Virus record (IMG/VR): IMGVR_UViG_3300046820_001270
Coordinates: 1 to 64,000 of that record
Reading direction: 5' to 3' (one strand)
Source: a virus
Lineage: Duplodnaviria; Caudoviricetes
DNA: 64,000 bases
The translations under genes and the position numbers were made by a program. The first letter of the stretch is position 1, and each line of letters begins with the position of its first letter. The notes under the pieces are model-generated. The model saw only the letters and a list, made by a program, of their open reading frames with translations, did no database searches and had not been told where the DNA came from. This document shows positions 37,071 to 62,937 of the stretch, in pieces.

Positions 37071-37071
37071 A

Positions 37072-37311
37072 ATGGAAAATAAGAAAGAATTAACAACAGA
37101 AGAAAGAGGAGTACAAGCATTAGAGAGTATTGCAAATTCTGCAAGAGACATAAGTGATTGGGTTTATTCTTTAAATACGGAATCGTGGTCTGAAAGACTT
37201 GAGTGGTATTTAAATGAATTTTACTTATTAGCAAAGGCTAAAACAATCGGATCATCAAATAGACCAACAAAAGAATATGAAGAAGAAACTGGCGATAGTA
37301 GTCCCTTATAG
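37072..37311 (+). CDS. Small hypothetical protein
   Basis: 79 aa, overlaps the next start. Confidence 0.65.
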   Translation: MENKKELTTEERGVQALESIANSARDISDWVYSLNTESWSERLEWYLNEFYLLAKAKTIGSSNRPTKEYEEETGDSSPL

Positions 37312-41375: not shown

Positions 41376-41943
41376 GGGACAACCATGGGTTATGTGGCCA
41401 GATAATTTGGTTAGTAATTTCATTGAAAACCCATCCAATAAAATATTTGATCACGACGGGGATTTTAATTTCACAATGAAATTTGAATTACCTGAACCGA
41501 TTAAAGAAAAGAAAACGTTAATTGCAAAATTACCAAGTTATTTCGGTCTTGATATTGTACCCGATGGTTGTCTCTTAATTTACAGATATAAATCGGCAAT
41601 TGAAACATTTCATTTATTTGAGGAATGTACTTGGGATATGAACATTATATATACATTAGTTATTGAGAAAATTGGTGATAAATTAACCATAAAAATAGAT
41701 GATAAAGTATCGTTTAATCTTGATTTAATTTTTAGATTGGGTTATGATGATAATTCACATATTATTTTTGGAGCAGGTAATTTTCCTAAAAATGGATTTA
41801 ATTTAAATTATTTACCGGTTAATTTACACTACCTATCAATAACTAAGGATAACGAATTAATATCAGAACATAATTTTGAGACTTTTATATACGATAAAAG
41901 TTTTGACTTAACTGATAATTGTAATTTTATACATAAAATTTAA
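41359..41943 (+). CDS. Hypothetical protein, possibly a stand-alone beta-sandwich (LamG-like)
   Basis: FNFTMKF...YTLVIEK...LTIKID...HIIFGAG pattern is similar to the GT7 inserts; weak. Confidence 0.5.
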   Translation: MLKIDKGQPWVMWPDNLVSNFIENPSNKIFDHDGDFNFTMKFELPEPIKEKKTLIAKLPSYFGLDIVPDGCLLIYRYKSAIETFHLFEECTWDMNIIYTLVIEKIGDKLTIKIDDKVSFNLDLIFRLGYDDNSHIIFGAGNFPKNGFNLNYLPVNLHYLSITKDNELISEHNFETFIYDKSFDLTDNCNFIHKI

Positions 41944-41946
41944 AAT

Positions 41947-43515: not shown

Positions 43516-44756
43516 TGGAAGAACAAATATCGGATATATTTCCAATTAAAACAGACACCGCATGCCAATTTAAATGGACATGGAGTACTTTGTTTTTATC
43601 GGTAGGAACATCATCAAGTTGTCACAGATGTAAAGGTTTTGATGTTAGTGAAAATATGCAAGATTTTCATAATCACCCTGATAAAATTAAGGATAGAGAA
43701 AATATGTTGGAGGGAAAATGGCCAGGTAATGGATGTGAGTACTGTAAAAAGATAGAAGATGCTGGAGGTGAGAGCGAAAGAACTTCGTTCATAAATGATT
43801 TACATTTATCACCTAAAGAATTGGTCAACAATCCAACAGCCACTAATGTAACCCCAAGAATATTGGAAGTATATTTTACAAACTTATGTAATCAAAAGTG
43901 TGTATATTGTTCACCATTTTTTAGTTCATTAATACAAACCGAAATTGAAAAATTTGGTCCGTTGGAAGACATATATGATTTAAATGGATTTAATGGTAGG
44001 GATGATTACGAAAAATTAAAATCTGATTTTTGGATTTGGATGGAAAAAAACTCAACCGAATTATATCAGTTTCAAATATTAGGTGGAGAACCAATGTACC
44101 AACCAGAATTTAATGAGTGTTTGGAATATTTGGAATCAAGAAATCACCCTAAAATGAATTGGAAAATATTCAGTAATTTGAAACATAATCCAACAAAATT
44201 TAAAGAGAAAATTGATAGGATTAGTCAACTAATTGAATCTAATAAATTAAAATCTTTTGAAATTGTTTGTAGCCAAGATAGTTGGGGACCACAGGCAGAA
44301 TTTAGTAGATATGGAATGAGTTTAGTAGAATGGGAAGAAAATTTTAATATATTATTAAATTCACCTTACGTTACTATATCCATACACTCAACAATTTCAC
44401 CAACAACGTTACCAACTATGGCAGATTTTTATAGAAAGATAATGGAATGGAATAAAATTAAAAGAGTAGACTATGGATGGAATACAATAGCTAACCCTGT
44501 TTTTATGAATCCAGAGATATTGGGACATTATGCAGAACCATTTTTTGATGATTTATTATCTGTAATACCTGATAATGATCATAGAAAACTTTATTTAGAG
44601 GGATTTAAAACACAAGTAACAACTCATCCTGTTGACTCAATAAGATTAAAAAGACTTAGTGATTATTTAGATCGTATTGACCAAAGAAGAAACACTGATT
44701 GGAAAAGTCTATATCCATGGTTAGTTGATGTTTGTGAAAAAGAAATTATTAATTAA
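43515..44756 (+). CDS. Radical SAM protein with N-terminal twitch/SPASM-like motif
   Basis: ACQFKW..SCHRC..CEYC; CNQKCVYC; ILGGEP. Confidence 0.9.
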   Translation: MEEQISDIFPIKTDTACQFKWTWSTLFLSVGTSSSCHRCKGFDVSENMQDFHNHPDKIKDRENMLEGKWPGNGCEYCKKIEDAGGESERTSFINDLHLSPKELVNNPTATNVTPRILEVYFTNLCNQKCVYCSPFFSSLIQTEIEKFGPLEDIYDLNGFNGRDDYEKLKSDFWIWMEKNSTELYQFQILGGEPMYQPEFNECLEYLESRNHPKMNWKIFSNLKHNPTKFKEKIDRISQLIESNKLKSFEIVCSQDSWGPQAEFSRYGMSLVEWEENFNILLNSPYVTISIHSTISPTTLPTMADFYRKIMEWNKIKRVDYGWNTIANPVFMNPEILGHYAEPFFDDLLSVIPDNDHRKLYLEGFKTQVTTHPVDSIRLKRLSDYLDRIDQRRNTDWKSLYPWLVDVCEKEIIN

Positions 44757-44759
44757 AAT

Positions 44760-46103
44760 ATGAAAATAAAACCATCAGAAGGAAATCAAACATTTTGTAT
44801 GGCACCTTGGGCACATACATACCTTTCACCACAAAGTGAGAGGAGATTATGTTGTGCATCAAGAGAAAAGGCTGAATGGGCAACACAATATTTGGATTCT
44901 GAAAGTGCAAATAAAAATTCAAAATATAATCCAGGAACATTAGAAGATCATTGGAACTCTGAATATATGAAAGGTATTCGTAGAGATTTAATGGAAGGTA
45001 AAGAAATACCACAATGTTCTGTTTGTAATGGAAAATTATTAAACATATCAATTTATAGAGATTATTTTACTAAGACATTATTTCCTGATAAAATAGAAGA
45101 AGCATTTGAAAAAACAAACGATGATGGATATACCGAAATGAAACCAATATCTTTTGATTATCGAATAAAAAACCTTTGCAATTTTAAATGTAGAATGTGT
45201 GGAGACCAATTGTCATCTTCTTGGGAGGCTGAAAGAAGATCAATGGGTCATTATGATGCGAATGGTAATACGGATTATTGGGCACACAAAGAAAATAAAC
45301 CAATAATAGAAAAATTTCAAAGAGAAGTTGCGGAAAAGGAATTGTGGGATGCAGTTAAAGAAGGTAGAATTGAGGAGATATATTGGGTTGGAGGTGAACC
45401 ACTTATGTGGGACATTCATTGGGAAATCATGGAGTACTTAGTCCAAACCGGAGGTGCTAAAAATGTGTGGGTAAGATATAATACTAATTTTTCAAGAACA
45501 ACTTATAAACATTATAATTTAAAAGATTATTTACCACACTTTAAACAAGTACAGATTTGCGCATCAATAGATGGTACGGGGAAAATTGTTGAATACGTTA
45601 GACATGGAATAATTTGGGAAAATTGGATTAATAATTTTAAAAATTATACATTTTTGAATGAACAGTATGGTAGTTATGGAATTGCATTTGATTTAACAAT
45701 AACAACACCTGGATTATTTGCATTAAAAGATCTTTTTGATTTATCCGTTGAATTAGGTGTTCACACATTAATTAAAACAACCTTTGCATTTGACGGTACA
45801 ATTGTGATGTGTCCTCAGGTTTTACCAAGAGAATTATTCGATGAAGTTATTGATGATATCATTAATTATATTAAACCTAAATTAGAAGGTAGAGAATATT
45901 ATTCATATTGGATAACTTGCTTAGAAGATTTAAAAACAAGACAGACGTTCCAAGAAAAATATGAGAATTGGGAAAGTGAGTTAAAACACGGAAAAGAAAG
46001 ATTAGGTATTACCGACATGTGGAGAGGAGATGTAAATAAACTTGAAGAAATATTTAGTATAAATCCAAAAGTACTAAATTGGTGGCAAAATATTAAAATA
46101 TAA
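44760..46103 (+). CDS. Radical SAM protein with N-terminal twitch/SPASM-like motif
   Basis: FCMAPW..LCC..CSVC; CNFKCRMC; WVGGEP. Confidence 0.9.
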   Translation: MKIKPSEGNQTFCMAPWAHTYLSPQSERRLCCASREKAEWATQYLDSESANKNSKYNPGTLEDHWNSEYMKGIRRDLMEGKEIPQCSVCNGKLLNISIYRDYFTKTLFPDKIEEAFEKTNDDGYTEMKPISFDYRIKNLCNFKCRMCGDQLSSSWEAERRSMGHYDANGNTDYWAHKENKPIIEKFQREVAEKELWDAVKEGRIEEIYWVGGEPLMWDIHWEIMEYLVQTGGAKNVWVRYNTNFSRTTYKHYNLKDYLPHFKQVQICASIDGTGKIVEYVRHGIIWENWINNFKNYTFLNEQYGSYGIAFDLTITTPGLFALKDLFDLSVELGVHTLIKTTFAFDGTIVMCPQVLPRELFDEVIDDIINYIKPKLEGREYYSYWITCLEDLKTRQTFQEKYENWESELKHGKERLGITDMWRGDVNKLEEIFSINPKVLNWWQNIKI

Positions 46104-47332
46104 TGGAAAAACAAAATGTTTTTTGTGTATTACCTTGGATACACTTAGCAACACATCCAATAGGAACAGTTACTCCTTGTTGTATCACTGACATGACTAA
46201 CGCCATATCAACGGCAGCTAAAGAGCATGATCCCGCACAACATTTATTCTTAAGTAGAGATACTTTAGACGATATTACTAATTCAGTTAGATTTAATCAA
46301 GTTCGTAAAGAAATGATGAACGGAGAATTCCCTAAAATTTGTCAGAAGTGTTATAAGTACGATCAAGGAGGAGTTAAGTCAAAAAGAATTGAATCAAATG
46401 AAAAATTTAAAGAATACATTGACCAATGTTTTGCTAACACCAACCCTGACGGATCACTTAAAGAAGTAAATTACAAATATATTGAATTGAGATTAGGGAC
46501 TGTATGTAATTTAAAATGTGTTACATGTAATCCATTTTCATCAAATAGATGGAATCAAGATTTACATATTTTTGAAGGAACAGAATTTGAAAAAGATTAT
46601 TTCAAAGTAGATATTAAAACTGAGTGGTTTAGAGATCATAATTTTTATGACGAACTATACAGTAAGAGTAATGGTTTAAAAGAAATATGGATTAATGGAG
46701 GAGAACCAACATTAATTAAGGAACATAGTTATTTTTTAGAGAAGTTTGTTAATGACGGAACGAGTAAAGATATCGATTTACATTATAGTTTAAATTGCAC
46801 TCAATTTCCCAATAAATTTATTGAAATATGGAAGAATTTTAATAAAGTAAGGATACAACTATCTATCGATGACTTAGGGGATAGAAATACATATATTAGA
46901 TATCCGTCCGATTGGAACGTTATCTATGACTCATTTCAAAAAATATTACAATATAAAAATGATTTTGATTTAGAAGTATGTCAAACTGTTAGTGTTTTAA
47001 ACGTAATGAATATAGATAATTTTAAAAAGTTTACCTTAGATCACGATATTATGGTTTCACATAATTTTGTTCATTATCCATCTCATTTACAAGTTAATTT
47101 AATTCCTGAAGAGTATAAAGAAAAATTATTAAATGATTTAAAATATTTGAGAATAGACGAGGTAGAAAGGTTAAAAATTGAACTGTTTAAACCACATGAT
47201 CAAGATGATGTAATAAAATTTTATAATTTCACCAGTTTATTAGATTCAAGTAGGAATATTGAAATAGGAGATCATTTAGAAGAATGGAAAATCCCATTTG
47301 ATGATTATATTAGTAAAGGAATAATTTTTTAA
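46103..47332 (+). CDS. Radical SAM protein with N-terminal twitch/SPASM-like motif
   Basis: FCVLPW..PCC..CQKC; CNLKCVTC; INGGEP. Confidence 0.9.
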   Translation: MEKQNVFCVLPWIHLATHPIGTVTPCCITDMTNAISTAAKEHDPAQHLFLSRDTLDDITNSVRFNQVRKEMMNGEFPKICQKCYKYDQGGVKSKRIESNEKFKEYIDQCFANTNPDGSLKEVNYKYIELRLGTVCNLKCVTCNPFSSNRWNQDLHIFEGTEFEKDYFKVDIKTEWFRDHNFYDELYSKSNGLKEIWINGGEPTLIKEHSYFLEKFVNDGTSKDIDLHYSLNCTQFPNKFIEIWKNFNKVRIQLSIDDLGDRNTYIRYPSDWNVIYDSFQKILQYKNDFDLEVCQTVSVLNVMNIDNFKKFTLDHDIMVSHNFVHYPSHLQVNLIPEEYKEKLLNDLKYLRIDEVERLKIELFKPHDQDDVIKFYNFTSLLDSSRNIEIGDHLEEWKIPFDDYISKGIIF

Positions 47333-48031: not shown

Positions 48032-48463
48032 ATGAAACTAATATCACATAGAGGTAATTTGTATGGGCCTAATCCAAATGAAGAAAATAACCCTCAATAC
48101 ATTATAGATACTCTTGAATTAGGATACGACGTAGAAATTGACGTTTGGTATATAGACAATAAATTCTATTTAGGTCACGACTATGCTAAATATGAAATAG
48201 ACATTAAGTTTCTATTAAATGAAAAATTATGGTGTCATTCTAAAAATTTAGATGCGTTAAATGAAATGTTAAACAATGGAATTAGATGTTTTTGGCATCA
48301 AAATGATGATTTTACATTAACTAGTGATGGTTTTATATGGACATACCCAAATAAAGAAACAACAATAAAATCAATAATTGTTTGTTTAGATGATACTTTA
48401 CCAAATAATTTAAATAAAAATAATATATATGGAATTTGCGGAGACAATGTCGGATCTTGGTAA
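48032..48463 (+). CDS. Short PLC/GDPD-like phosphodiesterase-fold protein
   Basis: LISHRGN, EENNP, YDVEIDVW, LGHD, LWCHSKN, GIC.D. Confidence 0.7.
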   Translation: MKLISHRGNLYGPNPNEENNPQYIIDTLELGYDVEIDVWYIDNKFYLGHDYAKYEIDIKFLLNEKLWCHSKNLDALNEMLNNGIRCFWHQNDDFTLTSDGFIWTYPNKETTIKSIIVCLDDTLPNNLNKNNIYGICGDNVGSW

Positions 48464-49226
48464 AATTAAACGAATTGCTGTATGTTTAAGTGGTAATTTT
48501 AGAACTTGGAAAACAGTTGTTAAAACTTGGGATAATGTTATAAAAATCGATAACGTTGAAGTGGATTATTTTATTCATACATGGGATAAAGTATCTCCGT
48601 CAATGCAAATAATCGGAAATTTAAAAAAAACTGGTATTACGGATGAAGAGATACTAAAAGACTATTACAAACCATTAGATATGAATTTACTTAATGAAGT
48701 ATTAGATTATCATAAACCTGTTAGTTATTTAATCGAATCTCCAAAAGATTTAAGTTTTAAAAACCCTAAACAATCGATATTTGAAAAATCACATTTATCA
48801 CAATTTTTTGGGATAATGATGGTAGGTAAATTAAAGAGAGAACATGAAATTAAAAATGACTTCACATATGATTTAGTAATACGAATGAGATTCGATACAT
48901 ATTTTACTACACCAATAATAATTGATAACATTAAACCCAAATTAAACACAGTGTATGGAAATCACTATGATTATTATTATGATGAAGTATATAAAAGACA
49001 TAATGGTAGATTGGGGGACATTTTTTGGTGTTCAGATTCACTAACTTATGATATACTGTCGGATTTTTATTTAGAATTACAAAACATTACAGATATACCA
49101 CATGGGACACCACCAGAATTTAGTTGGTTGCGTTATATAAAGAAAAACGGGATTAACATAACACCAAATCCTAGATGGGACTTACATATTCTAAGGGAGA
49201 ATGATACGTTAAAAAAATTAATATAA
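48429..49226 (+). CDS. Putative nucleotide-sugar transferase (IAVCxSG family)
   Basis: IAVCLSGNFRT, DYFIHTW, YDLVIRMRFD, GDIFWC..S; alternative ATG at 48447; ends KKLI. Confidence 0.6.
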   Translation: MEFAETMSDLGKIKRIAVCLSGNFRTWKTVVKTWDNVIKIDNVEVDYFIHTWDKVSPSMQIIGNLKKTGITDEEILKDYYKPLDMNLLNEVLDYHKPVSYLIESPKDLSFKNPKQSIFEKSHLSQFFGIMMVGKLKREHEIKNDFTYDLVIRMRFDTYFTTPIIIDNIKPKLNTVYGNHYDYYYDEVYKRHNGRLGDIFWCSDSLTYDILSDFYLELQNITDIPHGTPPEFSWLRYIKKNGINITPNPRWDLHILRENDTLKKLI

Positions 49227-50888: not shown

Positions 50889-51655
50889 TAAAAAAATTAA
50901 TGATTTGTGGAGATAGTTATGCATCAGGAATTGGATTAGATGAAAGTTATAATTTAGAAAAATCTTTTGGAGGTTTAATTTCTGAAAAATTAAGTATACC
51001 CTCAATAAATTACTCACGAGCAGGTATTTGTAATTTTGGAATATTTTTACAAGTTAAAAAATCTATTGAGGATAATAAAAATGATTTAGATAAATCATTA
51101 GTTATTATTTCATTAACACAATCTAGTAGATTAATGATTGCTTCCGAAAATATAACATCTGAGGATTTGGATTTATCAAATGTTGATTACATTAATAATC
51201 GACCATTTTCATATAGTGAAAAAAGAAAAAGAGACGTACCATTTATATTAAACAAAAGTCCTAAATTATTTAGCCAAACTATTTTAGATGTATTGGCACA
51301 TTTAAATAATAAAGTGTCGGGTGCAATGGAAGATGCTTATAAGATTTTACCAAAATATAAAATTGAAACATTAGGACAATATATACAAGATGTTTACTCC
51401 GATCCAATAAAAGATGAATATGACGTGGCTTTGGTTGCAAGAACACATCTATTATTAAAGATGAACAATATTAAACACATATTTTTAGGATCTCCAAGAA
51501 GTAAATTTGATTTTGTACCTGATGAAAATTTTTGTGAAGTAAATTGGAGAGAAATATCGGATAAATATCCAGACGAAATAGGATCAAGTCATTGTAATGA
51601 ATTTGGCCACGAAATGGTAAGAGATTTAATTTTAAAAAAAATATCAAATGAATAA
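50885..51655 (+). CDS. SGNH/GDSL-like protein
   Basis: ICGDSYASG, AGICNFGI, LTQSSR, SHCNEFGH. Confidence 0.7.
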   Translation: MIKKLMICGDSYASGIGLDESYNLEKSFGGLISEKLSIPSINYSRAGICNFGIFLQVKKSIEDNKNDLDKSLVIISLTQSSRLMIASENITSEDLDLSNVDYINNRPFSYSEKRKRDVPFILNKSPKLFSQTILDVLAHLNNKVSGAMEDAYKILPKYKIETLGQYIQDVYSDPIKDEYDVALVARTHLLLKMNNIKHIFLGSPRSKFDFVPDENFCEVNWREISDKYPDEIGSSHCNEFGHEMVRDLILKKISNE

Positions 51656-52835
51656 AGACACATTCTGCATAATGACGTACAAAGGTTTATTCGTTGAACC
51701 TACAAAACATGTGAAACCATGTTGTGTATTCAAAGATTTTGAAACCCCGTTAATATATGATGAAAATAAAACATTTGATGAAATGTTTAATTCCCCTCAA
51801 TTTATTGAATTAAGAGAAAAAATGGACAATGGTATTGTTCATAGTGGTTGTGTAAATTGTTTTAATGGCACTATTAACCATAGAGAGGGTATGAACATTA
51901 TGTTTTTTGGTAACGACTATGAAAAACTTAAAGAATTAAATATAAGTGAAGATTATAAATCGGACGAGATTCTTTATTTAGATTTAAGAATTTCCAATTT
52001 ATGTAATTTTAAATGTAGAATGTGTAATGCAACATATTCTTCCTCATGGGAAGACGAAATGAAACAAATTGAACCTAATTTTATATCTGAACCGAAATGT
52101 GGACATAATTGGATTAATCCTATTGTAGATAAAATAGATAAGATAAAATATCTTTATTTAGCAGGAGGAGAACCTTTAATAATGAAGGAAACATTTCAAT
52201 TATTAAAGTTAATAGAAAATAGAAAAAATGAAATTACATTATTTTTAAATACTAATTTGTCAAATTTAGAGTATAAAAAAATAGATGTTATTAATGAAAT
52301 AATAGAATTTAATAAAATACATTTATTTGTATCTTGTGATGGGTTTGGAGAAGTCGGTGAATACCAAAGAACAGGATTTAATACGGAAAAGTTTAAAACT
52401 AATTTAAAGACATTACTAAGTAGGATTAATAACTTAGATAAAATAAAATTAGATATAATTTATGCGTTAAGTTCAATAAATGTCTATAACCTGTTTAATT
52501 TTATGAAAGAACTAAAGGAAGAATTTAATTTAGGAGATGAAGTTATTAATTTTCAGTTTGTTAGTTCACCATGGTATTTTAGTGTGGCATCTATGGATGA
52601 AACACATAAAAAAGATGTGGTAAGTTTTATAAAAGATAATTATCATTTTTGTAATGAAAAAACTAAAAATCAATTAGATAATTTTATATATTTTGTCGAA
52701 AACAATAAAGACAACATAACCACATATCAAAAAGAAAAAGACTATGAATTCTTAAAAAAATTAGATATATTTAGAAATACAAATATAAATGAGGTTTCAC
52801 CTTGGATTTTTAAAAGTATTTTTAATGAGTTATAA
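51648..52835 (+). CDS. Radical SAM protein with N-terminal twitch/SPASM-like motif
   Basis: FCIMTY..PCC..CVNC; CNFKCRMC; LAGGEP. Confidence 0.9.
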   Translation: MNKDTFCIMTYKGLFVEPTKHVKPCCVFKDFETPLIYDENKTFDEMFNSPQFIELREKMDNGIVHSGCVNCFNGTINHREGMNIMFFGNDYEKLKELNISEDYKSDEILYLDLRISNLCNFKCRMCNATYSSSWEDEMKQIEPNFISEPKCGHNWINPIVDKIDKIKYLYLAGGEPLIMKETFQLLKLIENRKNEITLFLNTNLSNLEYKKIDVINEIIEFNKIHLFVSCDGFGEVGEYQRTGFNTEKFKTNLKTLLSRINNLDKIKLDIIYALSSINVYNLFNFMKELKEEFNLGDEVINFQFVSSPWYFSVASMDETHKKDVVSFIKDNYHFCNEKTKNQLDNFIYFVENNKDNITTYQKEKDYEFLKKLDIFRNTNINEVSPWIFKSIFNEL

Positions 52836-53538
52836 ATGTTTATACGCAAATGGAGATAGTTGGACGGAAGGGGATGAAATCGGAGATGAAAAGGATCATC
52901 GTAACACGCCGACCCTTAGATATTACAACTCTTGGCCTTGGTTTTTATCACAAGAATTGAATATCGGTGTTTGTGTAAATGACGGTGCCAACGGAAGATC
53001 AAATTATAGAATTTTCAGAAGAACCATTAAATTTATATTTGAATGGATAGAAAATGGAAAAAATCCATCTGAGTTAATTATTATTAATGGATGGACAACG
53101 CCAGAAAGATTTGAACTACCTGTTATAGATAAAAAAGGAAAAGGTAGTTATACTCATCTATTAATCAATACCCCGATATATGATAAAATTAAGTATGATT
53201 CATTAACTATTGATAAAATTAATAAATTTAGCAATTTATTTTATGAATTAATTGACTTAAATGAATTAGATAAAAATATGATTAACCATATGAGAATATT
53301 GAGAATTATTACCAAATATTTTGGTATAACTTATTTTGATTTTATTGGTGTTGGTAATCACCCGAATAACATTAAATTAAATTATAAAGATGATTTTAGT
53401 AATCTTTTTTCTAAAAGTTTTTTAAATACGGTATATGAAAATAAATGGAGTACTCACGAACAAAAACACCCAACAATCGAAACCCACAAAAAATGGGCAA
53501 CACTATTGAAAAATTTTATTAATGAATATAATTTATAG
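52825..53538 (+). CDS. SGNH/GDSL-like protein
   Basis: In-frame ATG at 52825 preferred over 52789; ANGDSWTEG, GRSNYRI, GWTTPER, KHPTIETH. Confidence 0.7.
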   Translation: MSYKCLYANGDSWTEGDEIGDEKDHRNTPTLRYYNSWPWFLSQELNIGVCVNDGANGRSNYRIFRRTIKFIFEWIENGKNPSELIIINGWTTPERFELPVIDKKGKGSYTHLLINTPIYDKIKYDSLTIDKINKFSNLFYELIDLNELDKNMINHMRILRIITKYFGITYFDFIGVGNHPNNIKLNYKDDFSNLFSKSFLNTVYENKWSTHEQKHPTIETHKKWATLLKNFINEYNL

Positions 53539-54244
53539 TTTATGTGGTAATGGACAAAGATTTAAAGATAAGGGATATGATACAATAAAATACCTTATCA
53601 AATATGGTAATGCACCTATGTTGTATCATTCTGTAAATACATTAGGTATTAGTGGTAATTTACATTTTATTGTTAGAGACGTACATTTAAAAGAATATAA
53701 ATTTTTAGAAAAGTTTCTATTAGATTTAGGTGGTAAAATAACAATTTGTTATAAGGAAACTTCGGGAGCAGCAGAATCTTTGTTATTATGTGAAAATGAT
53801 ATTGAAAATAAAGATTTACCATTTATATCGGTAAATTCAGATCAATATATGAATTGGAATGCTAAACCATTTATAAAAAAATTATTAGAAAATCCCGATA
53901 CTTCATATACACTAACATTTCAATCAACCGATCCAAAATGTAGTTATGTTAGATTGTTAAATGATAAAATAGTCGAAGTTAGAGAAAAATTAGTAATTAG
54001 CAATCAAGCAACTGTTGGGGTATATCATTGGAAAACAAGTAAAGATTTTTTTATTGATGCTAAACAAATGATTAATGATAATGTTAGAGACAATAATGAA
54101 TTTTACGTTGCACCAGTTTATAACTTTTCAATAAAAAGAGGATTAGTGGTTAAACCACATGAAATAAATCCAGATAATTTTATACCAGTCGGTACTCCAT
54201 ATGACTTGGTAAATTTTATGGCAGAACAAAGATTTTTTGATTAA
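53522..54244 (+). CDS. Sugar-phosphate nucleotidyltransferase-like protein (NTP_transferase fold)
   Basis: GNGQRFKDKGY..KYLI, TSGAAES, VNSDQ, ATVGVYHW, EFYVAPVYN, VGTPYDL. Confidence 0.8.
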   Translation: MNIIYSLCGNGQRFKDKGYDTIKYLIKYGNAPMLYHSVNTLGISGNLHFIVRDVHLKEYKFLEKFLLDLGGKITICYKETSGAAESLLLCENDIENKDLPFISVNSDQYMNWNAKPFIKKLLENPDTSYTLTFQSTDPKCSYVRLLNDKIVEVREKLVISNQATVGVYHWKTSKDFFIDAKQMINDNVRDNNEFYVAPVYNFSIKRGLVVKPHEINPDNFIPVGTPYDLVNFMAEQRFFD

Positions 54245-54576
54245 TGGAAAAATACAATATAAATGATTTTAAGAGAGGGTGGTTTATTGGTAATTTTGAA
54301 CCATCATTATTTAAGGGTAATTTTGAAGTAGGTCTTCAAAAATCAAAAATGGGAGATAGCCATGACGACCATTTCCATAAAAAAAATACCGAATATAATT
54401 TAGTTATTAGCGGTAGAATCAAAATAAACGATGAGGTATTTATTAAGGATGATATATTCATAATTAAACCATATACAGTAAGTCATAGTGTAGAATATCT
54501 TGAAGATACTGAAATTTTGGTTGTAAGAGATATGAGCGATTCTACAGATAAGTACATTTATAAAATAATTAATTAA
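54244..54576 (+). CDS. Cupin-fold protein
   Basis: GWFIGNFEPS, HDDHFHKKNTEY...ISG. Confidence 0.7.
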   Translation: MEKYNINDFKRGWFIGNFEPSLFKGNFEVGLQKSKMGDSHDDHFHKKNTEYNLVISGRIKINDEVFIKDDIFIIKPYTVSHSVEYLEDTEILVVRDMSDSTDKYIYKIIN

Positions 54577-54578
54577 CA

Positions 54579-55802
54579 ATGAATATATATAAAAAAACGG
54601 CACCCGATAATCATTTTGTGGTCGAGTATTATTTGGAAGCAAAAACATCATTAAAAGATGCGGCTTGGAACATCGCTATAGGACAGAGTATAGGAAATCC
54701 AAATAATCGAAGTATTTGGGAAACTGAAGAAATGTATGAAAATCACATTTGTTTTATACTCGAAGATGAGGATTACTTAAAATCACATAAAAATGGTATT
54801 GTAAAAATTTCATTTCCACTTTCAAACATTAATTTAGAAGAAGACGGAATTTCACAAATTTTATGTCACATTGCTGGAGGACAAGTTGATATCTTAGAAA
54901 TTCAAAAATGTCATGTTTTAAATATTGAATTACCTGAAGATGTTGAAAACTCATTTAAATTAAAACCAGCATACGGTATAGACGGATTTAGAAAATTAAA
55001 TGGTGTTTACGAAAAACCATTTTTAGGTGGGATCATTAAACCAAAAGTTGGTATGTCACCGGAAGTGTTATTAGAAGTGGTAAAAGAAATGGTCAACGGA
55101 GGGGTTAATTTTATCAAAGAAGACGAGTTATTAGGAAACCCAAATCACTGTCCATTAGAACAAAGAGTACCACTTATTACAAAATGGTTAAAAGAAAATG
55201 CTCCTGATGTGATATATTGTTTTTGTATTAATGGAGATAGTCCATATGCATTACAAAGAGCCCAATTTGTGGTGGATAATGGGGGTAATGGTATTCATAT
55301 AAACGTTTGGAGTGGATTAGGTGTGTACCGAGCAATCAGGAAACAAAACCCAAATTTATGGATACATTTTCAAAAAAGTGGTGATAAATTTTTCACAGAT
55401 AAAAGAGCACCGTTTCACATATATTGGCCCGTGATTTGTAAAATTGCAGGATGGTCTGGTGTAGATTCAATTCATGCGGGTATGATTGGTGGGTATATGA
55501 ATCAGGATGAAGAAGAATTAAAAGACACTTTAAAAATGTTATGGAAATACAATATTGTTCCAGCTCTAAGTTGTGGTATGCATCCAGGATTAGTACAATA
55601 TGTTAATGAATCTTTAAAAAGTTTTGATTGGATGGCAAATGTCGGTGGAGCAATGCATGCACATCCGATGGGAACTTTGGGAGGAGGAATTGCCATGAAA
55701 CAAGCAATAAATAAAAACTTTGACGGACAAGAATTCAAAATTGCAACTGAGAAATGGGGCAATAAAGAGTTTAACCCAGATTTGGCTTATCGATATTTTT
55801 AA
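54579..55802 (+). CDS. RuBisCO large-subunit-like protein (RLP, form IV-like)
   Basis: GGIIKPKVG, GGVNFIKEDE, DSIHAG, PALSCGMHPG, VGGAMHAHPMG; several carboxylase residues are substituted. Confidence 0.9.
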   Translation: MNIYKKTAPDNHFVVEYYLEAKTSLKDAAWNIAIGQSIGNPNNRSIWETEEMYENHICFILEDEDYLKSHKNGIVKISFPLSNINLEEDGISQILCHIAGGQVDILEIQKCHVLNIELPEDVENSFKLKPAYGIDGFRKLNGVYEKPFLGGIIKPKVGMSPEVLLEVVKEMVNGGVNFIKEDELLGNPNHCPLEQRVPLITKWLKENAPDVIYCFCINGDSPYALQRAQFVVDNGGNGIHINVWSGLGVYRAIRKQNPNLWIHFQKSGDKFFTDKRAPFHIYWPVICKIAGWSGVDSIHAGMIGGYMNQDEEELKDTLKMLWKYNIVPALSCGMHPGLVQYVNESLKSFDWMANVGGAMHAHPMGTLGGGIAMKQAINKNFDGQEFKIATEKWGNKEFNPDLAYRYF

Positions 55803-55816
55803 AAAATAATTTAATA

Positions 55817-57484
55817 ATGTATATAATAGGTATATCCGCATTTTATCACGATTCGTCTGTTTGTTTATTTAGAGACAATCAATTAATTTTTGCTTGTGAA
55901 GAAGAAAAGTTCACAGGTATTAAACATGATAGTTCGTTCCCAACGAATGCCTTGGAATATATCTATAAACAATATAAGATTACATCCAAAAATTTACAAG
56001 CAGTTTGTTATTATGAGGATCCTAAATTAAAATATCAAAGAGTAATGGAGAACATTAAACCTCAATGGTTTAAAAATCCAATATACTCATTGAAGTCTTA
56101 TTTTAAAATACGTAGTAATGTAAAGAATGTTGATAAGAAATTAAAAGAGATCTGCCCAACGATATTTTATTCAACACATCATGAAGCACATCAGTATTAT
56201 GCACATTATACATCACATTTTGAGGAATCAACTTGTTTATCAGTTGACGGTGTAGGTGAGATTGATACGGTGTCATTGGGAGTTGCAGATTATAATGGAA
56301 TCAAATACAGTTCACTTGCAAAGTATCCACATTCAATGGGTCTTTATTACTCCGCATTGACCTCATATTTAGGGTTTAGACCGAACGAAGGTGAGTATAA
56401 GGTAATGGGATTAGCGTCTTATGGTGATCCTCAAAAGTACATTAAAGAGGTACGTGATTTGATTTCATTTAAAAGTGGTAAGTTGGTGTGTAATATGAAT
56501 GTATTTTGTTGGAATAAGACCGATAAATCTATGTTCAATGAGAAACTTGTGGAACTATTAAGTGTTCCACAAAGATTACCTGAAGAAACATTGGAACAAA
56601 CACATAAAGACTTGGCTGCTGCCGTTCAACTAAGATATGAGGAGGTATTGTTTGAAATTATCAAATCAATTAGACACGTAAGTAAAAGTCCAAACTTAAC
56701 ATTAAGTGGTGGTTGTGCGTATAATGGAACGGCTAATGGTAAAATTGTTGATAAATCACATTTTACACACCTTTGGATTCCACCGGCACCATCTGATGCG
56801 GGATCGGCAATTGGATCAGTCGTTCATTATTTGGTTAAAGAACGTAAAGTAAGAAGTAAAATTACAAGAAATCCATTTTTAGGACCTCAATATTATTTTG
56901 ATGATATTAGACGAGCAATTCATAGAAATAATTTTAAAAAGTTTGAATCTGAAAATAAATTAAGAACACATATTGCTCAAAAATTATTCGAAGGTAAAGT
57001 TGTGGGATGGTTTAATGGTCACATTGAATTCGGAGCAAGATCTTTAGGTAATAGATCAATATTGGCAAATCCAACATTACCTGATATGAAAGATAGAATT
57101 AATAAGGTCATTAAGAAAAGAGAAGGATTTAGACCGTTTGCACCAATGGTGACCAAAGAGAAACAAGATCAATTCTTTGAGATGACGGATGACGTTCCTT
57201 ATATGAATCAGGTTGTTAAGGTAAAGGAAGAATATCGAGATAAATTACCTGCGGTCACACACGTAGATGGTAGTGCAAGAGTTCAAACAGTTTACAAATA
57301 CACCGTTATTTATGATTTATTAAACGAATTTGAAAAATTAAGTGGTTATCCAATTTTATTGAATACCTCATTCAATGTTAAAGATAAGACAATGGTGTTG
57401 ACACCGAAAGATGCGGTTGATACTTTCTTTGATACTGATATGGATATATTAGTAATGGGTAATTATGTTATGTATAAAAATTAA
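55817..57484 (+). CDS. Carbamoyltransferase (NodU/CmcH/TobZ family)
   Basis: HDSSVCL, EEEKFTGIKH, HHEAH, VDGVGE, EYKVMGLASYG, PSDAGSAIG, EFGARSLGNRSIL, RPFAP, HVDGSARVQTV, LNTSFN. Confidence 0.95.
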   Translation: MYIIGISAFYHDSSVCLFRDNQLIFACEEEKFTGIKHDSSFPTNALEYIYKQYKITSKNLQAVCYYEDPKLKYQRVMENIKPQWFKNPIYSLKSYFKIRSNVKNVDKKLKEICPTIFYSTHHEAHQYYAHYTSHFEESTCLSVDGVGEIDTVSLGVADYNGIKYSSLAKYPHSMGLYYSALTSYLGFRPNEGEYKVMGLASYGDPQKYIKEVRDLISFKSGKLVCNMNVFCWNKTDKSMFNEKLVELLSVPQRLPEETLEQTHKDLAAAVQLRYEEVLFEIIKSIRHVSKSPNLTLSGGCAYNGTANGKIVDKSHFTHLWIPPAPSDAGSAIGSVVHYLVKERKVRSKITRNPFLGPQYYFDDIRRAIHRNNFKKFESENKLRTHIAQKLFEGKVVGWFNGHIEFGARSLGNRSILANPTLPDMKDRINKVIKKREGFRPFAPMVTKEKQDQFFEMTDDVPYMNQVVKVKEEYRDKLPAVTHVDGSARVQTVYKYTVIYDLLNEFEKLSGYPILLNTSFNVKDKTMVLTPKDAVDTFFDTDMDILVMGNYVMYKN

Positions 57485-57487
57485 AAT

Positions 57488-57604
57488 ATGAAAAAATTAA
57501 TCAATTGGGTAAAAGACTACTTTGAAAGAAGAAAAAGAAAGAAAGAATTTAAAAAGAAATTAGAAGATTTACGTAAAAGAGATCCATTTATTTATAATCA
57601 CTAA
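57488..57604 (+). CDS. 38-aa basic peptide (not in ORF track)
   Basis: MKKLINWVKDYFERRKRKKEFKKKLEDLRKRDPFIYNH*, starting 3 nt after the carbamoyltransferase stop. Confidence 0.65.
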   Translation: MKKLINWVKDYFERRKRKKEFKKKLEDLRKRDPFIYNH

Positions 57605-57612
57605 TTTCGTGA

Positions 57613-57619
57613 TATTTAT
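57613..57619 (+). promoter_or_regulatory. TATTTAT motif (putative late promoter)
   Basis: 13 nt before the ATG at 57633. Confidence 0.45.
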
Positions 57620-57632
57620 ATAAAAACAAATC

Positions 57633-57836
57633 ATGACATTCAAAATCAATGCACTTAAAACAATCGTAGGAAACGAAGAATTCGTATTATTGGACAATAT
57701 TTTTAACTCTGCTCAAGAAGCATTGGACTTTGTAAAGGCAAACTTATCATTAAATGATACTTTAGGACCAAAAAACGTTGTAAGTATTAAAATAAATGAC
57801 GTTTACTATCATTATTTTGAAATTATCGAAGGATAA
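57633..57836 (+). CDS. Small hypothetical protein
   Basis: 67 aa with its own upstream motif. Confidence 0.65.
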   Translation: MTFKINALKTIVGNEEFVLLDNIFNSAQEALDFVKANLSLNDTLGPKNVVSIKINDVYYHYFEIIEG

Positions 57837-57837
57837 T

Positions 57838-57866
57838 TTGACAATTTGAGGTATTTTTAGTATATT
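57838..57866 (+). promoter_or_regulatory. sigma70-type promoter TTGACA-N17-TATATT
   Basis: TTGACA 57838-57843, 17-nt spacer, TATATT 57861-57866; ATG at 57875. Confidence 0.65.
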
Positions 57867-57874
57867 ATATCATT

Positions 57875-58312
57875 ATGATATACTGGTTAACTGGACAACC
57901 CGCAGCAGGTAAAACAACATTAGGTACTTGGATTCAATCAAGTTTCCCTAATAAGTCCATAATTGTGGACGGAGACGATATCCGAGAAATATTCGTAAAT
58001 AAAGACTATTCTGAGGAAGGAAGGAAGAAAAACATTGAAAAGGCACAGATTTTGGCTAAGTTCCTTCATCATAAGGGTTATACCGTTATCGTATCGTTAG
58101 TTTCACCATATAGAGATCAAAGAGAAGAGTTTAAGAACGAAATGGGTGATAACTTAAGAGAAATCTATGTACATACCACCCAAGATAGAGGACGTAATCA
58201 TTTTCATGTTGAGGGGTATGAGCCACCTTTAGATAACTACTACGATTGTAATACTACAGATAGTAGTGAATATCAAACATTTTTAGAATTAAGAAGAAAA
58301 TTAAACATTTAA
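57875..58312 (+). CDS. cysC: Adenylyl-sulfate (APS) kinase
   Basis: WLTGQPAAGKTT, VDGDDIRE, RKKNI, VSLVSPY, EIYV, YEPP. Confidence 0.85.
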   Translation: MIYWLTGQPAAGKTTLGTWIQSSFPNKSIIVDGDDIREIFVNKDYSEEGRKKNIEKAQILAKFLHHKGYTVIVSLVSPYRDQREEFKNEMGDNLREIYVHTTQDRGRNHFHVEGYEPPLDNYYDCNTTDSSEYQTFLELRRKLNI

Positions 58313-58316
58313 TAAT

Positions 58317-58682
58317 ATGAGTAAGAAATATGCAATGTATGTTGGCAGATGGCAGAATTGGCACAAGGGCCACGAATGGTTAATTAACCAACAGTTAGAA
58401 AAGGGTAAGGATATTTGGGTTGCAATTAGAAATGTTCCGACAGATGAAAATAATCCTAAAACGGCCCAAGAAGTAATGATGGAATTAGCTGGTGAACCAT
58501 ATTTTATGGAAAATTCACATAGAATTAATATATCCATTATTCCAGATATTGAAAGTATCAATTATGGTAGAGGGGTTGGTTATGACGTTATTTATCACGA
58601 ACCACCACCTGAAGTTGAAGTAATAAGTGGAACTAAAATCCGTAATGGAGAAATGACAACTGACGGTAAAGTTAAAGGATAA
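58317..58682 (+). CDS. HxGH nucleotidyltransferase (cytidylyltransferase-like)
   Basis: YVGRWQNWHKGH, YGRGVGY, ISGTKIR. Confidence 0.75.
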   Translation: MSKKYAMYVGRWQNWHKGHEWLINQQLEKGKDIWVAIRNVPTDENNPKTAQEVMMELAGEPYFMENSHRINISIIPDIESINYGRGVGYDVIYHEPPPEVEVISGTKIRNGEMTTDGKVKG

Positions 58683-59197
58683 TGATACACCAAAGAGTTT
58701 TATTTACCAAAGACGAATGTGATTACCTTATAAATTACAGAAATAATGGTGTTTACCGAAATAACGGAGGGTATGTAAACCATGTTGATATAAATTATAA
58801 ACAGTGGTCAATTTTCAGAAATAGTGATTTAGAATTTTTGTTTGATAGAATTATATCTTTTGCTGAAATATCCTTTGATGTAAAAATAGAAAATTTTAAA
58901 GAGGAAAGTTGGATCTATCAGTGGGAAGTGAATGACGGTTATGGAATGCATAGGGATAATGTTAAAAATAGGAAATTCATAATAGGTGTACAATTGAATG
59001 ACGATTATGTTGGAGGGGATTTAATGGTTGATTATGGTAATCAAATATTAATTGCGGATAAAACAATTGGTAATTGTTATACTTTTGAATCCGCAATGTT
59101 ACACGGAGTTTCACCTATAATATCGGGTAATAGATTTAATATGTTAACTTTTTTTCCAACGTATAATATAAAACAGAATAAAGTTAGTTTAATATGA
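58682..59197 (+). CDS. 2OG-Fe(II) oxygenase
   Basis: GMHRD, QLNDDYVGGDL, LHGVSPI..G.RF; ends VSLI. Confidence 0.85.
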   Translation: MIHQRVLFTKDECDYLINYRNNGVYRNNGGYVNHVDINYKQWSIFRNSDLEFLFDRIISFAEISFDVKIENFKEESWIYQWEVNDGYGMHRDNVKNRKFIIGVQLNDDYVGGDLMVDYGNQILIADKTIGNCYTFESAMLHGVSPIISGNRFNMLTFFPTYNIKQNKVSLI

Positions 59198-59403
59198 TAG
59201 TAGAAAGAAAAAGACACATAGTTAAAACAATATCGTATCGTGTTATTAGTACTTTAATAGGGTTTGTTATAATGTGGTGGGTAAGTGGATCAATTAAAGT
59301 TGGTGCGGCATTTGGTGTGGCGGAATTGATATATAAACCCATACAATATTACATTCACGAAAGAATATGGTATAAGTGGATAAAATATGGATTAAAAAAA
59401 TAA
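59194..59403 (+). CDS. DUF2061-like membrane protein
   Basis: RHIVKTISYR...YYIHERIW. Confidence 0.8.
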   Translation: MIVERKRHIVKTISYRVISTLIGFVIMWWVSGSIKVGAAFGVAELIYKPIQYYIHERIWYKWIKYGLKK

Positions 59404-59439
59404 AAAAAGAAAAAACAATAATCTAATATATAATAAGTT

Positions 59440-60003
59440 ATGATTGGTAATATAGACATATTTGAAAAATTCCTATCACCCGAAGAATGCGACCTTATTT
59501 TAAATAAATGTAAAGGAGAATTAACATTATCAAAGGCGAAAGTATACGGGGATAATTCTAACGATACTCATACTAAAACAATTAGAAAATCATCAATCGG
59601 GTGGATATCTGATTTAGGATTTTTAAATGAAAGATTAACAAATATATTAAAAAAAACATTCACAATAAACGGTATGGAAGTTACTGGATTAGGTAATTAT
59701 CAATTTACTGAATACAAAGAAGACGAATATTTTGATTGGCATACTGATAGTACGGACACTATATATAGAGATAGATTTACATCAATAGTAATTCAATTAA
59801 ACGATACATATCAAGGTGGAATATTGGAAATAAAAAATATTAAAGGAGAACTAGTACCAATAGAAAATAAAATAGGAACGTTATATATTTTTAATTCAAG
59901 ATTATCACATAGAGTAACACCTGTGGTAGATGGTATTAGATACTCATTAGTAAATTGGGTATCATTAGTTAAAACCGATTCAAAAAAACAAAATCTTTTA
60001 TAA
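59440..60003 (+). CDS. 2OG-Fe(II) oxygenase (prolyl-4-hydroxylase-like)
   Basis: FDWHTD, QLNDTYQGGIL, SHRVTPVVDGIRYSLVNW; ends QNLL. Confidence 0.9.
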   Translation: MIGNIDIFEKFLSPEECDLILNKCKGELTLSKAKVYGDNSNDTHTKTIRKSSIGWISDLGFLNERLTNILKKTFTINGMEVTGLGNYQFTEYKEDEYFDWHTDSTDTIYRDRFTSIVIQLNDTYQGGILEIKNIKGELVPIENKIGTLYIFNSRLSHRVTPVVDGIRYSLVNWVSLVKTDSKKQNLL

Positions 60004-60579: not shown

Positions 60580-61821
60580 ATGAAAGTTACAATTATAGGT
60601 GGAGGAACTGCCGGTTGGTTATCGGGTTTATATTTTAATTCTCAGGGATATGAAGATATTACAATTATAGATAGTTCCAAAGTTGGAATATTAGGTGCGG
60701 GAGAGGCATCTACACCAAATTTAAATGGATTATTATTAAATTTAGGAATTGATAAGATTGATTTTTTAAAAACAACCGGAGCAACCATAAAGGTATCGAA
60801 TGATTTTATAAATTGGTCTCCCTTCGGAGGTAAATACGAAAACCCATTCGGTCACCCCAATAGATTAAAAGAAGAAAATGATAATACATATGGTTATCAT
60901 TTTGATGCGAGAGAATGTGCTAAGTATTTTAAAAATATAGGAATTAATAGAGGAATAAAACATTTAGATGTTAATATTACACATTTTACTCAAAATGAAA
61001 ACGGAGATATTACCAATATTCATACCGAAGAAAAAATAAACATTGAAACAGAATTTGTTATCGATTGTAGTGGTTTTGGTAGATTATGTATCGGTAAATT
61101 ATATAATAGTAAATGGAAATCGTATTCGGAATATTTGAAGGCTAACTGTGCAATTGCATATTTTCTACCACAGGATAGAGTATTGACAGAAAATTCTAAA
61201 ACACATACCCAATCCATTGCTATGAAAAACGGATGGATGTGGCAAGCACCACTACAACATAGATGGGGATGTGGATATGTGTTTAATGATACTTACATTA
61301 CAAATGAAGAGGCTAAAAAAGAAGTTGAAGATTACTTGGGTAGAGAAATTGAAATTGTTAAAACTTTCAAATTTGATGCTGGTGGGTATGAAGAAACATG
61401 GATTAATAATTGTGTTGCACTTGGGTTATCTAGCGGATTTTTAGAACCATTAGAAGGAACATCGTTAATGTCCGTTATATGGTCTTTAAATAAATTAAGT
61501 GATATTAGGTTAGAAAATTGTAATTTTGAAAATAGAAAATTATATAATGAATATGTTAATAATGTAAATTATCAATCTATGTTGTTTGTTAGACATCATT
61601 ATAATTGTGGTCGAACTGATACTAAATTTTGGAGAGATATAAATAATACTAAATTACCATCAGATTTAATTAAAATACTTAGAAGTTTAGAAAAGAATAT
61701 TGAAGACGATTCATTGATTTATATTACAAGTAAAAAAGATGGATTACCAATATTTGGTAAAAATCATTATCAAATAGTTGATTTGGGTCATAAATCAAAA
61801 ACAATAAAAACATTTTTATAA
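60580..61821 (+). CDS. Flavin-dependent halogenase (tryptophan halogenase family)
   Basis: IIGGGTAGW, GAGEAS, GATIK, FVIDCSGF, WMWQAP, GFLEPLEGT; ends KTFL. Confidence 0.88.
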   Translation: MKVTIIGGGTAGWLSGLYFNSQGYEDITIIDSSKVGILGAGEASTPNLNGLLLNLGIDKIDFLKTTGATIKVSNDFINWSPFGGKYENPFGHPNRLKEENDNTYGYHFDARECAKYFKNIGINRGIKHLDVNITHFTQNENGDITNIHTEEKINIETEFVIDCSGFGRLCIGKLYNSKWKSYSEYLKANCAIAYFLPQDRVLTENSKTHTQSIAMKNGWMWQAPLQHRWGCGYVFNDTYITNEEAKKEVEDYLGREIEIVKTFKFDAGGYEETWINNCVALGLSSGFLEPLEGTSLMSVIWSLNKLSDIRLENCNFENRKLYNEYVNNVNYQSMLFVRHHYNCGRTDTKFWRDINNTKLPSDLIKILRSLEKNIEDDSLIYITSKKDGLPIFGKNHYQIVDLGHKSKTIKTFL

Positions 61822-62334: not shown

Positions 62335-62937
62335 ATGATTGAAGAAATAAAATTAAATGATAATACTAATATCTATAAATCAAAAATAAAAATTACCGAT
62401 AAAAATAAATTGATATCGGATATAAAACTTAATTTAGATATTTCCATAAATTCAAAAAATTCAACCCCCACCGAACCTGGTATCCAATCAACTATTGTAA
62501 TATCAACACCTTCCATACGAGAATTAAATGAAAAAATAATAGATGTATTATTTAAAAATTCTAAGATAGATATAAATACACCATATATCACAAATCAATG
62601 GGTTTATATTAGTGATAAGAAGAATACATATTATGGATTTCATTCCCACGATAAGAAAAATCACACAAACATACCGTTACAATGGACATATACTTATTAT
62701 GTCCAAATGCCAAATAATTTAGTTGGGGATGATGGTAAATTAGTTTTTAAATTAGATAATGATACTACACATTCCATATTGCCTGAAGTTGGTGATTTAC
62801 TTATATTTCCCACAACATTATTACATGCACCAATGACTAATACTAATTCGGAAATAGAAAGAATTGTATTTGCTGGAGTTTGGAGTTATATTGACACAAC
62901 AATTCAAATTAGAAAAAAAAATAAAACATTATTATAA
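62335..62937 (+). CDS. 2OG-Fe(II) oxygenase-like protein
   Basis: HSHD, YTYYVQMP, GKLVF, PEVGDLLIFP..LLHAP, RIVFAG; ends KTLL. Confidence 0.75.
   Translation: MIEEIKLNDNTNIYKSKIKITDKNKLISDIKLNLDISINSKNSTPTEPGIQSTIVISTPSIRELNEKIIDVLFKNSKIDINTPYITNQWVYISDKKNTYYGFHSHDKKNHTNIPLQWTYTYYVQMPNNLVGDDGKLVFKLDNDTTHSILPEVGDLLIFPTTLLHAPMTNTNSEIERIVFAGVWSYIDTTIQIRKKNKTLL

Follow-up and report, generated by a model that had tools for sequence, protein, structure and literature searches.

The window analyzed here, positions 1 to 64,000 of IMG/VR record IMGVR_UViG_3300046820_001270, derives from the genome of a very large T4-like phage recovered from a freshwater metagenome. It encodes a RuBisCO-like protein (RLP) at the end of a compact run of three genes, together with a nucleotidyltransferase and a small cupin (lengths in amino acids, aa):

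53522..54244, + strand: NTP-transferase of the GT-A fold (sugar or alcohol-phosphate nucleotidyltransferase), 240 aa; phrog_3980 at 1.5e-42 and a profile match to 4evw
54244..54576, + strand: single-domain cupin, 110 aa; putative metal site H43/H45/E50 and a cupin fold model
54579..55802, + strand: RLP, 407 aa, of a 'form IV-like' clade; PF00016 and PF02788

A sequence-only reading of the window had described these genes as coupled, and their arrangement bears this out: the open reading frames (ORFs) are contiguous on the plus strand, with a 1-nucleotide (nt) overlap (TAATG) at the transferase/cupin junction and a gap of 2 nt between cupin and RLP. The transferase start overlaps the preceding ORF by 17 nt. 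The same DNA was recovered in a second, independent study, and a 334-kb contig encodes an identical RLP protein.

The RLP is a full-length homolog of the RuBisCO large subunit and belongs to that superfamily by both of its Pfam domains, each above the gathering score: PF00016 (9.3e-33; 114.2 bits, cut-off 30.1) and, in the N-terminal domain, PF02788 (RuBisCO_large_N, 1.7e-05; 25.5 bits, cut-off 20.7). All named NCBIfam models for RuBisCO and RLP families score the protein far below their cut-offs, including the form III model TIGR03326 (162 bits vs. 497), the model for OiaX, the 3-oxo-isoapionate-4-phosphate decarboxylase (NF042437, 124 vs. 700), and the MtnW models PRK09549 (116 vs. 409) and TIGR03332 (91 vs. 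513.6); it is accordingly a member of neither the OiaX nor the MtnW family. The top relatives in the PDB are a form III RuBisCO (2cwx, 2.2e-34) and an uncharacterized RLP (3nwr, 1.5e-33), while the match to Rhodopseudomonas palustris RLP2 (2qyg) is weak (1.6e-15).

Active-site residues were compared, in spinach numbering, across an alignment of 118 nonidentical sequences and an Azospirillum form I reference; residue calls for the window protein were checked in both HMMER and MAFFT alignments. The RLP retains K175, K177, K201, D203, E204, H327, S379, G381, G403, and G404, whereas E60, T65, N123, H294, R295, H298, K334, and G380 are replaced by G, N, G, Q, K, D, Y, and C, respectively. The residues that the sequence-only reading had listed as kept (K175/K177, K201/D203/E204, H327, S379) and as lost (N123, H294/R295, K334) agree with this alignment; its assignment of E60 to a glutamine does not, as E60 aligns to G35 and Q36 follows one residue later. 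The signature is essentially invariant across 116 family members, from phages to Legionella and down to ~33% identity: 19 of the 21 canonical active-site columns are identical in every member, the exceptions being H298, which varies in six sequences, and G404, which varies in two. None of them has the complete carboxylase residue set of bona fide RuBisCO (forms I–III), with E60/N123/H294/R295/K334 reading G/G/Q/K/Y in 116/116. The RLP is under strong constraint.

Because the carbamate/Mg center and the proximal phosphate loop are retained, the sequence indicates an active enzyme, predicted to bind a phosphate beside the reacting carbonyl. The loss of the distal phosphate residues, of the hydration and cleavage base H294, and of loop-6 K334 excludes carboxylation; by analogy with established RuBisCO and RLP structure–function relationships, the same losses argue for a monophosphate substrate. 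RLPs are a classic case of enzyme repurposing. To our knowledge, all characterized RLP substrates carry a primary phosphate ester next to the carbonyl, and the known RLP reactions number a handful, all of them in salvage or catabolism. The present RLP is neither a carboxylase nor a methionine-salvage enzyme. The first conclusion had been reached from sequence alone; the two are carried by the replaced carboxylase residues and the distance of TIGR03326 from its cut-off for the first, and by the low MtnW scores and the absence of an MtnA-family gene in the carriers tested for the second.

The sequence-only reading had deferred the placement of the protein among forms I–IV to phylogeny; in the gene tree, the RLP family is monophyletic (support 100/100) and separate from forms I, III, and others. 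Its basal branches are sequences from Proteobacteria, Elusimicrobia, and Turneriella, and the window RLP falls within an all-phage subclade. A genome scan identified cellular carriers in a complete Pelagibacter chromosome and many SAR11 single-cell genomes; in Legionella maceachernii, L. nautarum, L. drozanskii, Tatlockia, and Francisellaceae; and in Azospirillum oleiclasticum, Turneriella, Elusimicrobia, Verrucomicrobia, bacteria of the candidate phyla radiation (CPR), and DPANN archaea. The family is abundant; homologs at E ≤ 1e-5 comprise 2133 cluster representatives, a count that is not filtered to the RLP clade. Querying 50,697 deposited phage records with positions 53000–58000 (megablast) and with the RLP (tblastn) returned no match. 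Look-ups of the exact Legionella and Azospirillum RLP sequences likewise gave no record, probably as a result of differing start-codon choice.

Previous work described 'form IV-like' RLPs in phages and Beckwithbacteria and left their function open (Jaffe, Castelle, Dupont & Banfield; bioRxiv 10.1101/386292; PMC6389311). Like the family described here, those RLPs occur on large myovirus-type phage genomes, differ strongly from other RLPs, and carry changes at key residues. Their grouping of phage and Beckwithbacteria sequences is reproduced in our tree, where a sequence from a Beckwithbacteria metagenome-assembled genome (MAG), L091, is nested within the phage clade; from this proxy sequence, rather than from their data set, we infer that the two clades are the same. 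The transferase/cupin/GDPD cassette and the SAR11, Legionella, and DPANN members are not described in that study. Phage RLPs of this clade have already been published; the cassette linkage was not found in the literature, where searches returned nothing on an RLP in connection with a cupin, nucleotidyltransferase, LicD, glycosyltransferase, or pelagimyophage.

RLPs on four contigs that binning had assigned to Saprospirales, Phycisphaerales, Verrucomicrobiae, and an unclassified bacterium (L081, L084, L082, and L104) also fall inside the phage clade on short branches, and that of L081 is 79% identical to the window RLP. Phage DNA mis-binned into MAGs is the probable origin of at least some of the four, L081 being the clearest case.

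Gene linkage was surveyed within ±6 kb of the RLP in 116 nonredundant loci, 68 of them phage and 48 cellular. Of these, 104 contain the transferase, 75 the cupin (65 of the 68 phage loci and 10 of the 48 cellular ones), 75 a GDPD-like gene, and 51 a DUF7796-like gene. In the IMG/VR set of 80 loci, whose RLPs are 50–84% identical to that of the window, the transferase recurs in 77 and the cupin in 76, mostly in the same gene order, and a 145-aa gene, the miniature GDPD, directly follows the RLP in 64. The cassette thus consists of a nucleotidyltransferase with, usually, a cupin and a miniature GDPD-like protein and, often, a DUF7796-like protein. Several of these partners also occur as fusions: transferase–cupin in 14 loci, with the cupin behind the transferase, and transferase–GDPD and GDPD–DUF7796 in one locus each. 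The linkage is far beyond chance, and its conservation extends from phages as far as Legionella and DPANN archaea; the sequence-only reading, for which a loss of this linkage among relatives would have been fatal, survives on this point. Most of the transferase–cupin fusions lie on IMG/VR contigs labeled 'GVMAG', for giant-virus MAG (L064, L066, L072–L074, L077), and on close relatives of these.

The window transferase alone has no Pfam match and only weak NCBIfam matches to RmlA and GlmU. However, a profile built from 45 homologs aligns over its full length with the NDP-sugar pyrophosphorylase 4evw (3.7e-34), followed by GMPP and RmlA (1e-12 to 1e-10), GlmU, LicC (1jyk), and IspD-type structures. 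The G-x-G-x-R + K signature (G9, G11, R13, K23) is invariant, and homologs carry PF00483 in precomputed tables; the signature and the end-to-end match to a solved structure place the protein in the NTP_transferase (GT-A) family. The window cupin likewise has no Pfam match, including none to MannoseP_isomer. Its motif HxH(x4)E(x6)G, in which H43, H45, E50, and G57 are invariant in the family alignment, and its modeled fold assign it to the cupin superfamily: profile searches return cupin_2 structures in the PDB, and the AlphaFold model (pLDDT 93.7) adopts a cupin fold whose top fold matches are all cupins. In Swiss-Prot, its fold is matched best by the C-terminal isomerase cupins of ManC/RfbM/XanB/AlgA, at 16–20% identity. 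Prediction of a transferase–cupin complex gave a score of 0.00, which is no verdict and speaks neither for nor against binding.

In the window phage, the remaining cassette partners lie ~5.5–6 kb upstream of the three-gene core:

48032..48463, + strand: miniature GDPD-like phosphodiesterase, 143 aa; HRG..EN..ExD..GHD motif, GDPD profile and fold matches
48429..49226, + strand: DUF7796-like protein, 265 aa, candidate transferase of the cassette; phrog_13607, DUF7796 at 26.8 bits
49227..50000, + strand: DUF7796-like paralog, 257 aa; phrog_13607, 32% identical to 48429–49226 (E 1e-17)

At 143 aa and with no Pfam GDPD match, the GDPD-like protein is much shorter than a full (beta/alpha)8 GDPD barrel (~240 aa). 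Its HRG..EN..ExD..GHD motif is nonetheless invariant across the family alignment, and its profile matches GDPD structures; the structural model (pLDDT 95.5) matches an AFDB cluster labeled 'GP-PDE domain' (TM 0.89). A fold search of the PDB returned weak rows (best E 2.3e-3), the top ones all GDPDs. In DPANN loci, a full-length Pfam GDPD stands beside the RLP–transferase pair in place of the miniature version. The DUF7796 model scores the product of 48429–49226 just below its cut-off of 27 and matches 21 of 46 family members. Profile searches found no PDB relative of the DUF7796-like family, and its Atlas label, 'capsular polysaccharide biosynthesis', is automatic only. A DUF7796-like homolog adjoins the RLP–transferase pair in SAR11. 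The GDPD–DUF7796 fusion noted above is a single 356-aa protein in a related phage locus (L053, 8206–9276); in the window, the miniature GDPD ORF overlaps the adjacent DUF7796-like ORF by 35 nt in a different frame.

Cellular family members sit in surface-glycan loci. In Pelagibacter, the gene order is 2-hydroxyacid dehydrogenase, unknown gene, miniature GDPD, transferase, and RLP, within a lipopolysaccharide (LPS)-core locus that also contains GmhA/HldE-type heptose genes, a GT9 heptosyltransferase, a HAD–transferase fusion, and a CMP-sugar synthetase. A SAR11 single-cell genome carries the cassette in an islet between lepA and gyrB, with GT17, GT61, and an epimerase. In Legionellaceae, the RLP–transferase pair lies head to head with LicD, a family whose members transfer phospho-alcohols from CDP donors. 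Related phages carry the cassette among NeuB, CMP-sugar synthetases, GT2/GT4/GT8 glycosyltransferases, sulfotransferases, and methyltransferases. In the window phage, it lies behind the tail-fiber genes, among glycosyltransferase, sulfation-type, and carbamoylation genes.

These data make it probable, in our judgment, that the RLP marks, as its signature enzyme, a mobile cassette whose product is a sugar-like building block, nucleotide-activated and destined for a surface glycan. Its sequence suggests that the RLP most likely performs enolisation-type chemistry on a monophosphorylated keto-sugar, the product of which would be nucleotide-activated for glycan decoration. The tie to a nucleotidyltransferase and cupin and the glycan-building island favor a biosynthetic over a catabolic role, so that the earlier proposal of a biosynthetic RLP feeding a nucleotide-activation step is supported in outline; the apiose-catabolism RLP OiaX, by comparison, is catabolic, whereas the contexts of the present family are biosynthetic glycan loci. 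We would give roughly even chances to the more specific statement that this RLP clade catalyzes an undescribed committed step toward a nucleotide-activated sugar or keto-alditol phosphate that is installed on cell-surface glycans, probably via a phosphodiester.

From what is shown above on the fold, the active-site signature, the linked and fused genes, and their genomic settings, we propose the following substrate class, order of steps, and target. A homodimeric RLP would bind a keto-sugar monophosphate through the retained proximal phosphate loop (G381, G403, G404), and the K201-carbamate/Mg2+ center (K201, D203, E204) would enolise it with the participation of K175. The product would be an isomerised or epimerised sugar phosphate, formed with neither carboxylation nor C–C cleavage. 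The cupin may contribute an aldose–ketose or epimerase step, and the transferase would join the sugar phosphate to a nucleoside monophosphate to give a nucleoside diphosphate (NDP)-linked donor. The transfer to glycan could fall to LicD in Legionella; elsewhere, glycosyltransferases and the DUF7796-like or GDPD-like proteins are the candidates. For the phage cassette, the surface to be decorated would be the envelope of the infected cell or the virion.

We lean, only tentatively, toward a primary-phosphate donor similar to CDP-ribitol or CDP-fructose that ends as a phosphodiester-linked decoration. The LicD and GDPD links favor it, and so do the known RLP substrates, which are primary phosphate esters. 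Parallels exist in the LicC/LicD and TarI/TarJ-type CDP-alcohol decoration pathways (phosphocholine, ribitol phosphate), where activation of a primary phosphate ester falls to a GT-A transferase and its transfer to the glycan to an enzyme of the LicD family. The presence of LicD beside the RLP–transferase pair in Legionellaceae, and of LicC among the PDB relatives of the transferase, resembles these systems; unlike them, the cassette has an RLP in place of the kinase or reductase, and the phage and SAR11 loci lack LicD.

Several observations weigh against a glycan-building cassette of this kind. LicD adjacency is limited to four Legionellaceae loci, and the ManC-like look of the transferase–cupin pair points to an anomeric sugar-1-phosphate rather than a primary phosphate. 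As the cupin is missing from most cellular loci, it is dispensable for the core reaction. The window transferase and cupin each score below every curated family cut-off, and the closest solved relative of the transferase, 4evw, is itself uncharacterized. Our literature search found no paper describing the cassette or any biochemical activity of family members. There is also no RNA evidence for the window phage: the one metatranscriptome contained short pieces only, mostly of relatives' carbamoyltransferase, and provides no evidence either way.

The resemblance to ManC-type enzymes suggests another route, in which the RLP would produce a rare ketose phosphate, the cupin would convert it to an aldose phosphate, a phosphomutase would move the phosphate to C1, and the transferase would form an ordinary NDP-sugar for the glycosyltransferases; the mutase could come from the host or from the HAD domain fused to paralogous transferases. 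This route draws its strength from the transferase–cupin architecture and the HAD–transferase paralogs. In fold, the cupin comes nearest to the PMI domain of ManC/RfbM/XanB/AlgA, the transferase–cupin fusions share their domain order with these enzymes, HAD–NTP_transferase fusions with a paralogous transferase domain occur in the same loci in both Pelagibacter and phages, and many glycosyltransferases are found nearby. However, the core cassette is without a mutase, Legionella has only the RLP and transferase beside LicD, the GDPD-family partner is left without a role, and cupin identity to PMI domains does not exceed the 16–20% given above. As one of two sub-readings of the glycan cassette, the route seems to us fairly unlikely. 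As type II PMI/GMP enzymes, ManC and its relatives combine an N-terminal NTP-transferase and a C-terminal cupin in one protein; the window encodes the two as separate, adjacent genes, as opposed to the fusions in 14 related loci. The low identity and the nearest relative of the transferase, 4evw, are differences from the ManC type, in which GDP-mannose synthesis proceeds without RLP or GDPD.

The glycan cassette was also weighed against a salvage function, in which the RLP and cupin would recycle 5'-methylthio- or 5'-deoxy-ribulose-1-phosphate released by the six radical SAM enzymes of the same island. For an RLP followed by a cupin, the literature offers a precedent: the Rhodospirillum rubrum RLP is a 5-methylthio-D-ribulose-1-phosphate 1,3-isomerase that precedes a cupin methylsulfurylase in the MTA-isoprenoid shunt (PMC6302742). 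Like the window, this system pairs an RLP with a small cupin, and its chemistry is an enolisation-based ketose 1-phosphate isomerisation with no carboxylation. Unlike it, the window family has no methionine-salvage genes, bears a different active-site signature, is coupled to a nucleotidyltransferase in glycan loci, and matches 2qyg (1.6e-15) far more weakly than form III (2e-34). The IF-2B/MtnA family has no representative in the complete, cassette-bearing Pelagibacter genome or in five related phage records of 80–100% completeness. A place among the DeepYkr RLPs (MTRu-1-P 1,3-isomerases that act downstream of MtnP/MtnA) was judged from this absence of MtnA and from the 2qyg match. The NCBIfam MtnW models reach 91–116 bits against cut-offs of 409–514, the window's radical SAM genes accompany the RLP in 0/80 related loci, and the cassette is always tied to the transferase in glycan loci. 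We consider by-product salvage very improbable. The methionine-salvage and MTA-shunt readings fail on the absence of IF-2B/MtnA in the carriers tested and on the low MtnW scores.

Large T4-like phages are generally known to glycosylate their DNA, and this requires a supply of nucleotide sugars; the activated sugar might thus serve to hypermodify a nucleotide or the phage's DNA, and not to decorate a glycan. This, too, is highly unlikely: the same cassette, with an identical active site, occurs in cellular LPS and glycan loci, the window cassette is placed behind tail-fiber genes among glycosyltransferase, sulfation-type, and carbamoylation genes, and no DNA-modifying enzyme was linked to the cassette in the census.

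A working carboxylase or form III-type nucleotide-salvage RuBisCO has next to no chance of being correct, even though the top named models are form III (TIGR03326, PDB 2cwx), since E60, N123, H294, R295, H298, and K334 are all replaced, 162 bits is far below the 497-bit cut-off, and no gene of the ribose-1,5-bisphosphate isomerase family was found in the carriers tested; the active-site losses, low scores, and missing isomerase led us to reject the AMP-pathway and carboxylase readings alike. The form III enzymes of Pyrococcus horikoshii (2cwx) and Thermococcus kodakarensis (1geh/3a12) are nonetheless the best solved matches, with a full-length fold, and share with the window RLP the core of K175, K177, K201, D203, E204, H327, and S379; the six replacements and the TIGR03326 score distinguish the two.

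If the RLP indeed serves glycan biosynthesis, this would be a third physiological role of the RuBisCO fold, beside CO2 fixation and sulfur or sugar-acid salvage, and jumbo phages would be what disseminates it among SAR11, Legionella, CPR bacteria, and DPANN archaea. The RuBisCO superfamily would gain a new function, biosynthesis coupled to nucleotide activation. The carriers include the most abundant marine bacterium, Legionella, and hundreds of large phages, and because the active site is invariant, one assay on one member would annotate all of them. Such an assay would also reveal a surface-glycan decoration copied by phages and probably of importance to phage–host recognition.

The surroundings of the cassette in the window extend well beyond its conserved partners. 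Tail-fiber genes, collagen-like and T4-type, occupy 11–33 kb, and a single same-strand island runs from 33.6 kb to the window end. It contains three GT7-type glycosyltransferases, six radical SAM enzymes, DUF6071 proteins, and 2-oxoglutarate (2OG) oxygenases, as well as a NodU-type carbamoyltransferase, an APS-kinase-like gene, and a halogenase-like flavoenzyme. The GT7 and DUF6071 genes, like the radical SAM genes, accompany the RLP in none of the 80 related loci. Directly downstream of the RLP lies the carbamoyltransferase:

55817..57484, + strand: NodU/CmcH-type carbamoyltransferase; Pfam Carbam_trans_N/C at 1e-59 to 1e-65

Despite its position, this gene is not a conserved cassette member, as it occurs near the RLP in only 3/80 related loci. 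On its own, the carbamoyltransferase is widespread in metagenomes, and contig depth is much higher there (run X3).

The three GT7 genes (35212–39936) are of the eukaryote type, beta-1,4-galactosyltransferase-like, and two of them carry a fused ConA-like/Laminin_G_3 lectin domain, an unusual feature for a phage. The six radical SAM paralogs lie at 39993–47332 and 51648–52835, all in the one island; the last of them scores 262 bits, above cut-off, with the NCBIfam twitch-domain model N_Twi_rSAM, and its SPASM-type matches are N-terminal (residues 7–84). Further downstream, the APS-kinase-like gene precedes a gene for a 121-aa HxGH nucleotidyltransferase-like protein (57875–58682). An unrelated phage (L136/L137; L136, 19432–20791) likewise has an APS_kinase + DUF2061 pair ~8 kb away from its RLP, and a sulfation-type module may therefore travel with these islands. 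A flavoenzyme of the tryptophan-halogenase family (60580–61821; Pfam 2.6e-86) is flanked in the same island by three small 2OG-Fe(II) oxygenases (58682–60003 and 62335–62937).

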